From Clostridia bacterium (GTDB lineage Bacteria; Bacillota; Clostridia; TANB77; CAG-508): a DNA stretch of 64,000 nt. The first letter of the stretch is position 1, and the number at the start of each line of letters is the position of its first letter. The position numbers were made by a program, and so were the translations under genes. The notes beneath the pieces are model-generated. The model was given only the letters and a program-made list of their open reading frames with translations, made no database searches and was not told where the DNA came from. The stretch is taken from positions 45 to 64,044 of the forward strand of contig JAFWMA010000012.1 in the NCBI GenBank assembly GCA_017510825.1, given 5' to 3'. Below are positions 32,742-37,187 of this stretch, in pieces.

Positions 32742-32767
32742 AAAAAATAGAGTTTTTCAACTCTATT
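32742..32767 (-). terminator. Terminator ending the surface-protein cluster
   Basis: Minus strand AATAGAGTTgaaaAACTCTATTTTTTG. Confidence 0.6.
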
Positions 32768-33000
32768 TAATTTAGTATATTTCTATCAAAATTTTCAGTC
32801 ATTTGATCTACTTCATTTGATTCTTCTAGTTTGTCTGTGTACAAGGCATTTATCATTTCCTCCGTTTGTTCTGTAGGATTGTTTTCTTCAAAAAGTAATA
32901 CTGTTGTTCCAGTTAATATCATCATAACAACAATTATTATAACTAAAATAGCTAATGTAATTCCTCTTTCATTTATATTATTTCTTCCCTTGTTTTTCAT
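32767..33000 (-). CDS. 77-aa pilin-like (class III signal-like) mini-protein
   Basis: MKNKGRNNINERGITLAILVIIIVVMMILTG... shares the N-E-[KR]-G-I-T-L motif with 5318-6817. GAAAGGA RBS. Confidence 0.65.
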   Translation of the reverse strand: MKNKGRNNINERGITLAILVIIIVVMMILTGTTVLLFEENNPTEQTEEMINALYTDKLEESNEVDQMTENFDRNILN

Positions 33001-33098
33001 AAATTATTCCTTTCAATTATATTAGTTTTTCTAGTTATATTTTTATCACAACTAAAAGCTAAAGTCAATCAAAAATTGTAATATTATAAATGTTTGTG

Positions 33099-33410
33099 CT
33101 ATTCTATATTATTAATTATATTTTGACTTTCATTTATTTCTATTGTATTATTTTCTATTGTATTTTTTACTATGTTATTTTCTACTTTGTTCACAACCTC
33201 GGTTATGTTTTCTTCTTTATTATTGATTTTTTCTATTGCTTCTATTGTAATATTATCTTTCAAATTAGATTCTTTTTTTGATTCTGTATTTATCAGTTCC
33301 TTTCGGCTTTGAGTATTTAGCTTTGTTGTTTCTATTTCCTTTTTAGTGTTTACATATTCTTCCAAACTTTCTTTTAAAGTTAAGTATCCGGGGTTTTGTT
33401 TCTCCTTCAT
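33099..33410 (-). CDS. Probably the out-of-frame C-terminal continuation of 33343-34692, not an independent gene
   Basis: Reads ...NPGYLTLKE. Removing one C from the CCCC run (33390-33393) fuses it to the upstream ORF as ...DEGETKPGYLTLKE... Confidence 0.35.
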   Translation of the reverse strand: MKEKQNPGYLTLKESLEEYVNTKKEIETTKLNTQSRKELINTESKKESNLKDNITIEAIEKINNKEENITEVVNKVENNIVKNTIENNTIEINESQNIINNIE

Positions 33411-34692
33411 CTATTCTAGCATATTCTTTATCTGTTTTATTCCACTGGTATGTTGTTCCTTTCCCTCCAATTAAATTACAATCATTTGAAAACATTATGT
33501 CTGAACTCTCAACCTGTTCAGTTTTCCATTCATTTCCAACAATTATTGTTGTTAAATTGCTACAACAATAAAACATTCCTTTCATTTTTTTAGTCTTTTT
33601 TGTATTAAATGATGATAAATCTATTCTTTGTATTTTAGAACATCTACTAAATAAATCTTCCATTTCAATAACATTGCTTGTGTTAAAACCTTGCAAGTTA
33701 ATTGTTTCTAAATTACTACACCAACAAAACATTGAGTTTATGTCAACAATATTACTTGTGTCAAAGTTTTGTAGATTAAGTGTTTTTAATTTATGACAAC
33801 TTAAAAACATCATTCCCATTTTAGTAACTTTTCGTGTATCAAAATTTGATACATCTATAGACTCAAGATTATTACAGTTTCCAAACATAGCCCACATACT
33901 GGTAACATTTGAAGTATCAAAGTTACTAACATCTATGTTTTGTAATTTGTTGCAGTTGTAGAACATATCTACCATACTAATTACATTTTTTGTATCTAAA
34001 CTTGTGACATTAATATTAGTTAAGTTCTTACAATTACTAAACATTGATTGCATATATTTAACTTGGCTTGTATTTATTTTTTGCACATCTTCTATTTCAT
34101 TTATATTTTCACCCATAAAAAACCAATATGAAGTAAATTCTTTTGGCTTTATTTCATTTAAAACTTTAACCTTTTTTGTATTGCTTAAAACTTCTTCCCA
34201 CATCGGTTTATTGTTTTGATTTTTTAATTGATATTCATTATTATCTTGATTAAAAAAATCATTAATAAGTGTTCCTGAGTATGTAAACTCTGGCGTTGGG
34301 TTTAATAGTAAAAAATCCCCTTCTCCATCATTATCTGTATCATAGTATTTTGCATATACTCCGTAGGGTTTAAAAAAATATGTTACTGTAATGTCCTCGT
34401 CTGTTATTATTCCTGAAGTATTTCCACTTGTACTTTCTAAAAAGTATTCTCTAATATTTGGCACTGTTGTATTATACATTTGTCCTGATTTTAAATTCTC
34501 AATTTTAAAACTATCTATTACTGAGTTGTCTTTTGGATTTACACAGTTTATTGTTACAGTATATATTTTTTCAATATTAAGTTCTCCTATTTTTAATGCG
34601 CTATTTTCAATATATTTTCCATACGCTTTATTTGTTATCACAATTAAAAACATTATAATAACTATGCTGATTATTGTAAGCTTTTTTTTCAT
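33343..34692 (-). CDS. BspA/DUF285-type leucine-rich-repeat surface protein with MucBP-like N-domain (apparently frameshifted at the 3' end)
   Basis: 449 aa. Signal peptide, then about 8 repeats of F..C..L..I.[VL]..F[DN]T..V..M..MF. Confidence 0.85.
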   Translation of the reverse strand: MKKKLTIISIVIIMFLIVITNKAYGKYIENSALKIGELNIEKIYTVTINCVNPKDNSVIDSFKIENLKSGQMYNTTVPNIREYFLESTSGNTSGIITDEDITVTYFFKPYGVYAKYYDTDNDGEGDFLLLNPTPEFTYSGTLINDFFNQDNNEYQLKNQNNKPMWEEVLSNTKKVKVLNEIKPKEFTSYWFFMGENINEIEDVQKINTSQVKYMQSMFSNCKNLTNINVTSLDTKNVISMVDMFYNCNKLQNIDVSNFDTSNVTSMWAMFGNCNNLESIDVSNFDTRKVTKMGMMFLSCHKLKTLNLQNFDTSNIVDINSMFCWCSNLETINLQGFNTSNVIEMEDLFSRCSKIQRIDLSSFNTKKTKKMKGMFYCCSNLTTIIVGNEWKTEQVESSDIMFSNDCNLIGGKGTTYQWNKTDKEYARIDEGETKPRILNFKRKFGRICKH

Positions 34693-34738
34693 CTTTCTTC
34701 CTTTCTTTGTTAGTTTATTTCTTCTTTTTTATGTTCTT

Positions 34739-35331: not shown

Positions 35332-35925
35332 TTATGCAGGTCTAACTTGAGTTCCTGTTACTTCCACTAAAAATGTGAAATCGTAAGCATTTTTACCCTC
35401 TTGAGTATCTATTGCATCATTTTCTTCTATTGACTTTCCGTTATTTGTTGTTTCATAATCCCAGAACCATTGAACAGTTTTTGTAACTGTTTTATCTTGA
35501 GTTCCTGCATCAAAACTTCCAGATAAAGCTTTTCCTAATTCATAGAATGTTTTGTAAACATTATCTCCTACTTTAAAATATAAGTTTGTAGGTTTGTTGT
35601 GAATTTCTGGAAATTCAACTTTATAATTAACTCCTGTTTCAGTTCCAGTTGCATCAATATCTATATTAAATGTCCCAGATGTACCGGGTGCAATTTTTCC
35701 ATTTGCTATTTTTTCTGCATTATAGTTTTCTCTCCCTAAAACAAATGTACCAAAATCTTCATCTTCGCCATTTGCTAGGAAAGACCATTTTGCTACTTCA
35801 ATTTTTCCATTTCCAGTTACTTTTGTTACATATTTTGCATATGCTATTCCTCCTATTGCTGAGGCTGTTATTATTAATGCACTTGAAATTATTAGTGCCT
35901 TACTTTTTAATTTATTTTTATTCAT
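35332..35925 (-). CDS. Secreted TasA-operon-like protein (candidate SipW substrate), paralogue of 36362-37057
   Basis: ATG at 35925 behind AAAGGAG. Signal ends GGIAYAKY. Shares KI.PGTSG.F.I.ID...NYKV.F.E..NKP.NL.F...W.W.YE...D..DTQ with the LPRTG protein. Confidence 0.75.
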   Translation of the reverse strand: MNKNKLKSKALIISSALIITASAIGGIAYAKYVTKVTGNGKIEVAKWSFLANGEDEDFGTFVLGRENYNAEKIANGKIAPGTSGTFNIDIDATGTETGVNYKVEFPEIHNKPTNLYFKVGDNVYKTFYELGKALSGSFDAGTQDKTVTKTVQWFWDYETTNNGKSIEENDAIDTQEGKNAYDFTFLVEVTGTQVRPA

Positions 35926-36012
35926 ATATGCTCCTTTCAAAAACTACCTCCATTTATATAAATATTATTAAGAATAATAATATTTAACTAATTTGAGTTA
36001 CTACAAATGTAG

Positions 36013-36387
36013 CTAAAAAATATGTATTATTTTCCCGATAATTTCATTTTTTGAAATTTCTTTATCTTTACTGTTGTTATTGTCTCCTTTGCAAATTACA
36101 TTATTGTCTTTAATTTCTTCTACTCTGTGACATACTAGTGTATCTTCATTTTTGTAAAGAACAATATCTCCTTCAGTTATATCTTTTGATTCTTTCATAA
36201 GAATTCTGTCTCCTATATTTATTGTAGGTTCCATACTTCCTGATGCAATTTGAAATATAGAATAACCAAATAAGGTTCCATATTCTTTCTTTTGAATGGT
36301 AATTTGAAATATGTATATTAGTGCTAGTATTAATACTAATACTGAAATAATCGTAAATAAATTAATTAATATTTTTATAATTTTCAA
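36013..36387 (-). CDS. sipW: Signal peptidase I, archaeal/ER (SipW) type
   Basis: 124 aa. TM anchor, SGSMEP catalytic Ser box, CHRV His box, KGDNN box. TTG start. Confidence 0.85.
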   Translation of the reverse strand: MKIIKILINLFTIISVLVLILALIYIFQITIQKKEYGTLFGYSIFQIASGSMEPTINIGDRILMKESKDITEGDIVLYKNEDTLVCHRVEEIKDNNVICKGDNNNSKDKEISKNEIIGKIIHIF

Positions 36388-37057
36388 TGTGATTTTTTCC
36401 TCCTTTTTGATTGTTTAATTTGTTTTTTATTATTTTGCCTAAGTAAATAATAATTATTGTCATTATTGTTTTTAATATCAAAGAAATTACGCCAATTTTC
36501 ATTATCCCTGTTCGTGGTAATTTTAATTTTGCTTCTGGTAGATCTTTTTCAATAAGCAATGTTGTATAAAATTCATAATCATTTTGACTATCTTGCGTAT
36601 CTATTTCGTCATTATCAATTTCGTCACTAGCATTTTTACTTTCATATTCCCAATTCCAGTATATTCTTTTTACTGTTTGACATGATTGTTTTGGCATCTT
36701 TCCTTCTATATTTATTTTTTCTAAATAATTGTTTTGGGTATTGTCTACGAAAAAAATTAAGTTTCGAGGTTTATTTTTTTCCTCTGAGAATAAAACTTTA
36801 TAATTAAAATTTGAAAAATAATTATTTGAATCGATTATTATATCAAAGTATCCTGATGTTCCGGGTTGAATTTTTTCATGATTAATATTTGTTAAACTTT
36901 GTTTTTTTTTAATTATATTATCTGATTCAACTGAACTGTTAGTGGGACTTAGAGTAAATAATATGTTATTTTTATTTTCTTTAGCTAGGTTAGTTTTTGA
37001 ATGAATTATTATTACTAAAATAATTATATAGAATACTAGTTTTTTAATTTTACGCAT
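36362..37057 (-). CDS. Cell-wall-anchored (LPRTG) paralogue of the TasA-operon-like protein
   Basis: 231 aa. Signal peptide, shared beta-sandwich-like core, C-terminal LPRTG followed by a hydrophobic stretch and a basic tail. Confidence 0.8.
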   Translation of the reverse strand: MRKIKKLVFYIIILVIIIHSKTNLAKENKNNILFTLSPTNSSVESDNIIKKKQSLTNINHEKIQPGTSGYFDIIIDSNNYFSNFNYKVLFSEEKNKPRNLIFFVDNTQNNYLEKINIEGKMPKQSCQTVKRIYWNWEYESKNASDEIDNDEIDTQDSQNDYEFYTTLLIEKDLPEAKLKLPRTGIMKIGVISLILKTIMTIIIIYLGKIIKNKLNNQKGGKNHIENYKNIN

Positions 37058-37158
37058 TTAGTTTTCCTTTCTTTTTTCACTTTTAATATTACTATTATTG
37101 GGATTTTTAATCATAGATTATAAGTTTTTTTAGAATTAAAAATTAATTATTGATTTGT

Positions 37159-37187
37159 ATTATATACTCTTTTCCATATTTTGTCAA
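37159..37187 (-). promoter_or_regulatory. Consensus sigma-A promoter of the surface cluster
   Basis: Minus strand TTGACA (37187-37182), 17 nt spacer, TATAAT (37164-37159). Confidence 0.55.

Follow-up and report, generated by a model that had tools for sequence, protein, structure and literature searches.

A SipW-type signal peptidase operon of a Clostridia bacterium as a candidate surface filament locus built from a large unnamed protein family

What kind of surface structure, if any, is encoded by a group of co-directional genes arranged around a signal peptidase of the SipW type? This question is raised by a stretch of 64,000 nucleotides from a Clostridia bacterium (assembly GCA_017510825.1, contig JAFWMA010000012.1, positions 45 to 64,044), the whole of which is referred to here as the window and whose DNA has a G+C content of 28%. 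Six open reading frames (ORFs), here called g1 to g6 in the direction of transcription, lie between a promoter and a terminator hairpin (37187 to 32742); all of them are located on the minus strand, to which all operon coordinates given below refer. In a first-pass annotation, made from the letters of the sequence, the cluster had been described as surface-fibre-like and had been compared with tapA-sipW-tasA of Bacillus subtilis. On the balance of the evidence presented here we lean, if cautiously, towards the interpretation that the operon encodes a TasA-superfamily-like surface filament whose subunits belong to an unnamed family, with g1 as its base, g3 as its shaft, g4 as a minor subunit and g5 as an adhesin.

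The signal peptidase, g2 (36013-36387; 124 aa), is of the archaeal or endoplasmic reticulum (ER) type, as had been proposed. The catalytic boxes SGS51MEP, CH88RV and GD102NN (Ser-His type, the last one forming part of a KGDNN box) can be read directly from the protein, which scores 78.6 bits against the NCBIfam model TIGR02228 for archaeal/ER-type signal peptidase I (cutoff 51.85) and matches Peptidase_S24 with an E-value of 1e-10. Against the Bacillus-specific SipW equivalog NF046067 it reaches 61 bits, which is under the cutoff of 190; g2 is thus SipW-type, not a SipW orthologue.

Its candidate clients share a distinctive start. The gene g3 (35332-35925; designated A type) encodes a secreted jelly-roll protein of 197 aa; its start codon, the ATG at 35925, has an AAGGAG ribosome-binding site, its C-terminus (...TGTQVRPA) bears no sorting signal, and the mature protein of about 165 residues is acidic (pI 4.7, 15% Asp+Glu). 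Common to g1, g3, g4 and g5 is an N-terminal module that consists of a signal-peptide ending of the form small-aromatic-small↓K-aromatic (the arrow denotes the predicted cleavage site) and a conserved amphipathic segment behind it. The signal-peptide ending and the mature start read ...GGIAYA↓KYVTKVTGNGKIEVAKWSF in g3, ...NIVLA↓KNKTKVIGNTEISIAKPILEIE in g4 and ...NKAYG↓KYIENSALKIGELNIEK in g5. In g3, the predicted cleavage site AYA↓KY and the amphipathic stretch ...VAKWSF fall within residues 28-49 (35779..35844). Conservation was assessed in 400 non-redundant sequences, in which the family-wide motif is [T/A/V][Y/F][A/S][K/R]Y, with Lys (85%) or Arg (7%) at position +1 and Tyr (Y32, 93%) at position +2, followed by V/I-A-K-W-x-F, in which A45 (91%), W47 (91%) and F49 (88%) occupy positions i, i+2 and i+4; Lys77 of a GKIAPG motif is conserved in 85%. 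The combination of a hydrophobic stretch with the signal-ending motif is found in 23 of 524 ORFs of at least 230 aa in related loci, and all 23 are cluster proteins.

Two AlphaFold monomer models of g3 (full length, 44 sequences; mature form, 94 sequences) consist of a beta-sandwich or jelly-roll core predicted with a local confidence (pLDDT) of 80-95 and a global score (pTM) of 0.64-0.71; residues 31-57 have a pLDDT of about 30 in both. The donor strands of BsaA and TasA are also disordered in the monomer (PMC11580942, PMC9674648). The features assembled here, i.e. a dedicated ER-type peptidase, a TasA-like cleavage context in which the second mature residue is aromatic, an acidic jelly-roll and an unplaced segment of alternating hydrophobicity, together with several paralogues, a variable adhesin with the same segment and recurrent LPXTG or sortase partners, match the signature described for the donor-strand filaments TasA, BsaA and AbpX, and we therefore propose that g3 forms a donor-strand fibre.

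According to this proposal, g1, g3, g4 and g5 would be exported by Sec, and g2 would remove their signal peptides and thereby expose the conserved amphipathic N-terminal segment. The segment of g3 (..VAKWSF..) would lie outside its own jelly-roll and would insert as a donor strand into the next subunit, giving rise to a non-covalent fibre. The base of this fibre would be g1, a paralogue which has gained an LPRTG motif and which could be linked covalently to peptidoglycan by a housekeeping sortase; in function, g1 might thus correspond to TapA or to the LPXTG anchors that AbpX-like loci are proposed to have. The shortened paralogue g4 may represent a minor or adaptor subunit, and g5, with its MucBP domain and BspA-type leucine-rich repeats (LRR), might join the fibre by means of the same N-terminal module and confer adhesion.

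The putative base protein g1 (36362-37057; 231 aa; A' type) is indeed a paralogue of g3, as claimed earlier (BLASTP E 5e-21, 41% identity over 118 residues). Read from its sequence, it has all the parts of a sortase substrate: a hydrophobic, cleavable-looking N-terminal signal (...KTNLA↓KENKNNILFTL), the recognition motif LPRTG (36506-36520), a hydrophobic segment and a basic, positively charged tail (LPRTG-IMKIGVISLILKTIMTIIIIYLG-KIIKNK...). Apart from the window, LPRTG-bearing A' proteins were found only in the nearest relative (locus L085/L086, whose A protein is 77% identical) and in locus L092, and the motif is conserved as (K/S)LPRTG in L085 and L092; the LPRTG-bearing paralogue noted in the first-pass annotation thus recurs in two other lineages. 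In both of these, the LPRTG-bearing A' gene is followed directly by the A gene. A metagenome scan with g1 alone gave no match, and a scan with an alignment of g1 gave one further LPRTG-type locus. The sole candidate enzyme in the window for anchoring g1 is encoded by the previously noted sortase gene at 61844-62509 (minus strand), whose assignment is supported by Pfam (Sortase, E 5e-24) and by a score above the cutoff of TIGR01076, and whose neighbours, rpsT, a HIT-family gene and alaS, are housekeeping genes.

The family to which g3 belongs is large. A search of 5.8 billion proteins recovered 78 relatives of g3 at 90% clustering, all of them unnamed and labelled 'hypothetical protein', and neither Pfam nor NCBIfam has a name for its members. 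When 1.84 billion representatives of 50%-identity clusters were searched with a profile, 5,925 matched at E<=0.001 (2,741 at E<=1e-10), and 80 loci were obtained from a scan of one genome per species. The hosts are uncultured gut and rumen Clostridia, Lachnospiraceae, Erysipelotrichaceae, Hungatella hathewayi, a few Bacteroidales bins and six metagenome-assembled genomes (MAGs) of Candidatus Saccharibacteria. In the latter (Saccharibacteria/Nanosyncoccus loci L051, L054, L055, L058, L060 and L068) the genes are arranged in the order A - A' - B, and an LPXTG protein of 428-516 aa is encoded directly upstream in several of them.

To survey the neighbourhood, ORFs were called in all loci and searched with iterated hidden Markov models (HMMs) seeded from the window genes. 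Linkage was counted in 78 species-level loci (L005-L084) for partners encoded on the same strand at a distance of at most 3.5 kb; as contigs end inside many of the loci, the counts are lower bounds. The recurrent core is A - B - A', usually in the order A-(signal peptidase)-B-A', where A' is a second A-type paralogue whose N-terminal anchor mostly looks uncleaved; a large, variable protein with the same signal ending (D type) is often encoded behind it. A B-type gene (the type of g4) is present in 55 loci and at least two A-type genes in 46. A g2-like peptidase is encoded in 45 of the 78 loci, and all peptidases tested from related loci score above the TIGR02228 cutoff. Sortase genes occur in 19 loci. 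Either enzyme is found in 62 loci and both together in 2, compared to about 11 expected if they were distributed independently. The gene linkage that had been singled out for checking is therefore conserved at the level of the family, but the tapA-sipW-tasA-like order seen in the window is not a conserved one. In six loci (L018:7743-8519, L019, L021, L026, L028 and L039) peptidase and B-type protein are fused into a single product of 255-260 aa, in which a hydrophobic segment and an F-A-K-F motif connect the SipW-type peptidase domain to the B-type domain behind it. At L003/L004 and L087 the A-B-A' block adjoins a prophage integrase and repressor module.

The sortase-type loci have a composition of their own. 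In 18 of them (L005, L007, L010, L012, L013, L020, L022, L023, L027, L031, L034, L035, L037, L040, L044, L046, L052 and L057) a protein with a thioester domain (TED) and a SpaA domain is encoded between the sortase and the A gene (e.g. L007:5613-6866); it lies directly after the sortase gene in 17 of the 18 (at L010 the contig starts there) and mostly directly before A. Its ORF ends in ...LP[VIK]TG[MR]-stop, i.e. in an LPXTG motif at the extreme C-terminus; for a sortase substrate, the lack of a hydrophobic tail and of a charged anchor is unusual. A read-through fusion of this LPVTGM protein with the following A gene was considered and discarded, as the reading frames differ between loci.

Such loci bring to mind a covalent, sortase-polymerised pilus of a new type, in which the Lys of YAKY or Lys77 of GKIAPG would serve as the pilin-motif lysine. 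The strong conservation of both lysines and the sortase gene directly upstream in 19 of the 78 loci, in 18 of which the TED and SpaA protein precedes A, would be in line with such a pilus, as would the presence of an LPRTG paralogue and of a sortase in the window. However, not one of 320 A-family proteins carries an LPXTG signal, so that g3-type subunits cannot be sortase donors, and the Lys at +1 is replaced by Arg notably in the sortase-type loci, in which the variant TYARY is concentrated. Moreover, the cluster in the window itself contains a peptidase, not a sortase, and its single LPXTG protein suits anchoring rather than polymerisation. We thus regard a covalent pilus as very unlikely. 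An intermolecular isopeptide bond or a role as sortase lysine had at first appeared attractive for K31 in view of the BsaA precedent and of an alignment of 44 sequences in which K31, N114 and D173 are invariant, but this idea was weakened by the same substitution by Arg in the wider sampling.

A different reading of the two kinds of loci, which we consider rather improbable, is that the A, B, A' and D proteins make up a novel type of surface filament of monoderms, modular in build, without detectable sequence kinship to TasA and served by two alternative partner enzymes. In the peptidase-type loci the SipW-like enzyme would mature the subunits. In the sortase-type loci the sortase would ligate the anchorless LPVTGM thioester adhesin directly onto the filament, where the A subunit might offer one of its lysines or its newly exposed N-terminus as acceptor. 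The product would be a hybrid pilus, held together in part covalently and in part by donor strands, and the window, in which a subunit paralogue would have become the sortase-anchored base, would represent a third solution.

The two remaining secreted proteins of the operon also carry the shared N-terminal module. In g4 (34739-35236; 165 aa; B type) the signal ends in VLA↓KN and is followed by ISIAKPILEIE, and the protein has no family match in Pfam or NCBIfam. Comparison of the A and B profiles by hhalign gave a probability of 98.5% (E 3e-15), in an alignment that extends from the signal through the N-terminal segment to the first strands of the core, which indicates that g4 is a divergent paralogue of g3 belonging to a shortened family. 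The surface protein g5 (33099..34692; D type) was correctly described before as a DUF285/BspA-type LRR protein with a MucBP-like domain; it matches DUF285 (E 2.6e-36), MucBP (E 1.6e-8) and the PARCEL repeats (E 3e-48). Its annotated ORF (33343-34692; 449 aa) stops at 33343 as the result of a +1 frameshift caused by one extra C in the C-run at 33390-33393. The original frame continues to 33099, and the frameshift cuts off an ending of the form ...NPGYLTLK and a low-complexity tail. The extra C is identical in four independent metagenome assemblies and is therefore not a sequencing error of this record; L085 has an intact orthologue of 515 aa, and the frameshift is evident from a tblastn comparison with it. 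D-type proteins with the same N-terminus are encoded in 16 loci.

Whether g3 and its relatives are TasA proteins by descent was addressed by sequence and structure comparison, and the suspicion that they are not canonical TasA or camelysin was well founded, in that they form a distinct, large family. PF12389 (Peptidase_M73) matched none of g1, g3 and g4 at E<=0.1 and none of 44 family members at E<=10, and a profile search of all sequences of the PDB came back empty, with no AbpA, thread or TasA. Among family members, NCBIfam gave scattered sub-threshold matches to TapA (TIGR04087), to TIGR04088 and to an Enterococcus LPXTG family. For a direct comparison by hhalign we used an alignment of 35 TasA sequences from a database search seeded with a verified TasA sequence. 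The A family and TasA aligned over the signal peptides only, with TYA↓KY placed on the experimentally known TasA site TWA↓AF (probability 20-33%, E 4.5e-4 to 1e-3); the mature parts, compared after removal of the signal peptides, gave a probability of <2%, and the best score of a TasA HMM against 400 A sequences was 9.8 bits. Of the earlier suggestion that the AY[AG]KY endings resemble the SipW-cognate class signal, the resemblance itself is supported by the family-wide motif and by its register on the TasA site, whereas the corresponding NCBIfam model TIGR04088 matched none of g1, g3, g4 and g5 and gave two weak matches among 82 family members (best E 0.0058). Searches of the PDB and BFVD with Foldseek produced weak matches to TasA (8aur, E 0.022-0.039; 5of2, E 0.035-0.067; template modelling (TM) scores 0.30-0.34), none of which is significant, and the weak top matches included the donor-strand pilin EcpA; in BFVD the matches were to generic capsid jelly-rolls only, with no similarity of the A fold to phage structures. 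Beyond the signal peptide, none of the methods used, namely Pfam, NCBIfam, the PDB profile search, hhalign (in local and greedy mode, with full-length and mature sequences) and two runs of Foldseek, gave a significant match, and membership in the TasA/camelysin family was thus rejected. The wider TasA superfamily (TasA, AbpX, AbpA, CanX, the 0406 thread and Tafi) has been defined by HHpred links of 80-95% probability between divergent families (10.1101/2024.12.30.630787), and TasA is the member against which our profiles were compared.

Several of these findings, and some others, weigh against a TasA-like filament. The mature domain is without detectable TasA homology in the searches by Pfam, hhalign and PDB profiles, and Foldseek gave neither a match at E<=0.001 nor a TM-score >0.34 and scored carbohydrate-binding modules (CBMs) and viral capsid jelly-rolls equal to TasA. 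In addition, sipW is absent from both other LPRTG-type clusters (L085/L086 and L092), including that of the nearest relative, which indicates that processing need not depend on a peptidase encoded in the cluster. The sortase of the window is located 25 kb from the operon and matches a general model, with none of the class-specific sortase models reaching its cutoff. Finally, the A domain with its signal and AKY motif is also found as the N-terminal module of surface proteins of 350-957 aa (P0132 with 957 aa, P0219, P0195, P0154, P0104, P0123 and P0149), whose C-terminal parts contain InlB B-repeat, Flg_new, GLUG, dockerin, DUF6273-like and DUF285-like domains. Such use as a module of multidomain proteins fits anchoring or binding as well as it fits polymerisation.

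The last point leads to an explanation without any polymer. The proteins could be individually secreted wall- or glycan-binding proteins and adhesins, in which the jelly-roll of A would be a CBM-like module, the signal ending would simply mark the clients of a dedicated ER-type peptidase, and g1 would be a module displayed by sortase. Apart from the position of the A domain at the head of long surface proteins, this view can draw on the best Foldseek matches, which include an alginate-binding CBM (8zqf, E 0.012), accessory domains of GH101 and mannanase enzymes and capsid jelly-rolls and which score at least as well as TasA, and on the architecture of g5, which is typical of a stand-alone adhesin. 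Yet the CBM matches are not significant either, and individually acting proteins leave unexplained why a segment of about 20 residues with alternating hydrophobic positions is conserved at about 90% and is unfolded in otherwise confident monomer models, and why three paralogous families and segment-sharing cargo are kept together in dozens of species. We therefore consider the absence of a polymer unlikely, but it is an explanation to be taken seriously, and the donor-strand filament is still the interpretation we favour.

Comparison with the closest known systems shows how far such a filament would follow established examples. As in tapA-sipW-tasA of B. subtilis, an ER-type peptidase (TIGR02228) is encoded beside its putative clients, and an accessory paralogue or analogue has a proposed role in anchoring or nucleating the fibre (PMC9674648); as in TasA, the signal ends in Thr-aromatic-Ala↓x-aromatic according to hhalign, and the secreted product is a predicted jelly-roll whose N-terminal extension lacks structure in the monomer. 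In contrast to the Bacillus system, the mature domain is not detectably homologous to TasA, g1 is a true paralogue of the putative major subunit and carries an LPXTG motif (neither holds for TapA), two further partners exist in the form of the B-type paralogue and the LRR adhesin, and close relatives do without a peptidase at this locus. The AbpX-like loci (Sleutel et al., 10.64898/2026.01.04.697558), which were compared by their description, likewise encode an acidic major subunit that measures about 165 residues after maturation and has an aromatic residue in second place, together with a TIGR02228 peptidase of their own, paralogous minor subunits and 'tip' proteins that vary. However, AbpX groups with TasA at 30-35% identity and the g3 family does not; AbpX peptidases are reported to have ten transmembrane helices, compared to one N-terminal transmembrane segment in the 124 aa of g2; and mature position 4 is Ser/Thr here instead of acidic. 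Similarly, the sipW-bsaA-bsaB-bsaC operon of Clostridium perfringens (PMC7395162, PMC11580942; again compared by description) is a clostridial operon with a SipW and several remote TasA-like paralogues, has a neighbouring sortase, and encodes a subunit, BsaA, with an N-terminal strand for which exchange has been proposed and which the monomer leaves disordered; the surroundings of family members have been noted to contain genes for LPXTG proteins, sortases and peptidases (Kivimaki 2025, PMC11580942). BsaA differs in that its subunits are locked by an Asn(donor)-Lys-Glu isopeptide bond and have no LPXTG motif, and its oligomers are reported to be membrane- rather than wall-anchored. The conserved donor-side residue is Lys or Arg in the family studied here, which makes a universal isopeptide bond as in BsaA unlikely. 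With SpaA-type sortase pili the operon shares the use of LPXTG and sortase for wall attachment, and related loci encode a TED/SpaA adhesin next to a sortase; in contrast to these pili, the major subunit has no LPXTG motif, no pilin-motif context and no CnaA/B fold, and if its copies polymerise at all, they would do so without covalent bonds.

The concept as such is known: preprints of 2025-26 (Sleutel et al., 10.64898/2026.01.04.697558, among them) have described, by bioinformatics, bacterial loci of the TasA superfamily that contain LPXTG anchors and sortases beside minor subunits and tip proteins, and for which donor-strand complementation is predicted. New are the very large unnamed family that is out of reach of current TasA profiles, the near-exclusive alternation between a SipW-type peptidase and a pair of sortase and thioester adhesin, the fusions of peptidase and subunit, and, in the window, a subunit paralogue turned sortase substrate. 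If the loci do encode a fibre system, this would be a major unrecognised apparatus for adhesion and biofilm formation in gut anaerobes, and the principle of TasA and AbpX, i.e. an ER-type peptidase combined with donor-strand subunits, would extend to a sequence family that is missed by profiles. The window might then be seen as a natural experiment in which one subunit fold would serve twice, once in the free protein of the shaft and once in a base anchored by LPXTG, and the pair g1 and g3 makes the tethering of TasA-like fibres to the cell, which has long been discussed, directly testable.

The layout of the operon agrees with its earlier description as six genes behind a consensus promoter. 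All ORFs were found in place, and the sigma-70-type promoter TTGACA-17-TATAAT (37159..37187) matches the consensus at 12 of 12 positions and is the sole such match within the scanned 8.5 kb (31000-39500). The start of g2 overlaps the end of g1 by 26 nt, and after g6 the operon is closed by a terminator-like hairpin with a U-run (32742..32767; free energy -11.5 kcal/mol, z -4.9 compared to shuffles). Upstream, a hairpin at 37230-37259 ends the preceding gene, and the operon promoter lies downstream of it. This bidirectional hairpin separates the operon from a 256-aa ORF (37297-38067, minus strand), which is directly upstream and has no Pfam or NCBIfam match; in the close relative L085, another gene stands in its place.

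The next genes upstream encode SpoIIP (E 3e-68) and GerA (E 1e-155), and the homologous locus L001 is surrounded by genes resembling spoIIGA, spoIVFB and SipL. TasA itself was first described as spore-associated. These observations would suit a component of the spore surface or of a spore appendage instead of a vegetative fibre. However, the promoter is a perfect sigma-A/sigma-70 consensus and not of a sporulation-sigma type, the neighbours vary between loci (prophage integrases in some, housekeeping genes in others), and the family is present in MAGs of Candidatus Saccharibacteria and Erysipelotrichaceae, in which sporulation is not expected. A spore role of the operon is thus extremely unlikely.

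The last gene of the operon, g6 (32767-33000), encodes a single-pass membrane protein of 77 aa, for which an orthologue was found only in the close relative L085. It had been called pilin-like, a description prompted by its hydrophobic N-terminus RG-ITLAI (G-ITLAILV) which we do not uphold: g6 does not conform to type IV pilins (class III signal G↓FTLxE, Glu5, prepilin model), specifically lacks Glu5, and has no pilin or other family match in Pfam or NCBIfam. As a conserved pilin-like component of the cluster it was likewise rejected, as such an N-terminus is found in proteins of 3 of about 85 loci. The same kind of N-terminus, KGITL followed by hydrophobic residues, is present in a 499-aa protein elsewhere in the window (5318-6817, minus strand) and, in the close relative, in the protein encoded upstream of its cluster (L085:23-1273). 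The KGITL-type N-terminus seems to mark membrane or pseudopilin-like proteins of a class that is spread through the lineage, and not to be a part of the cluster.

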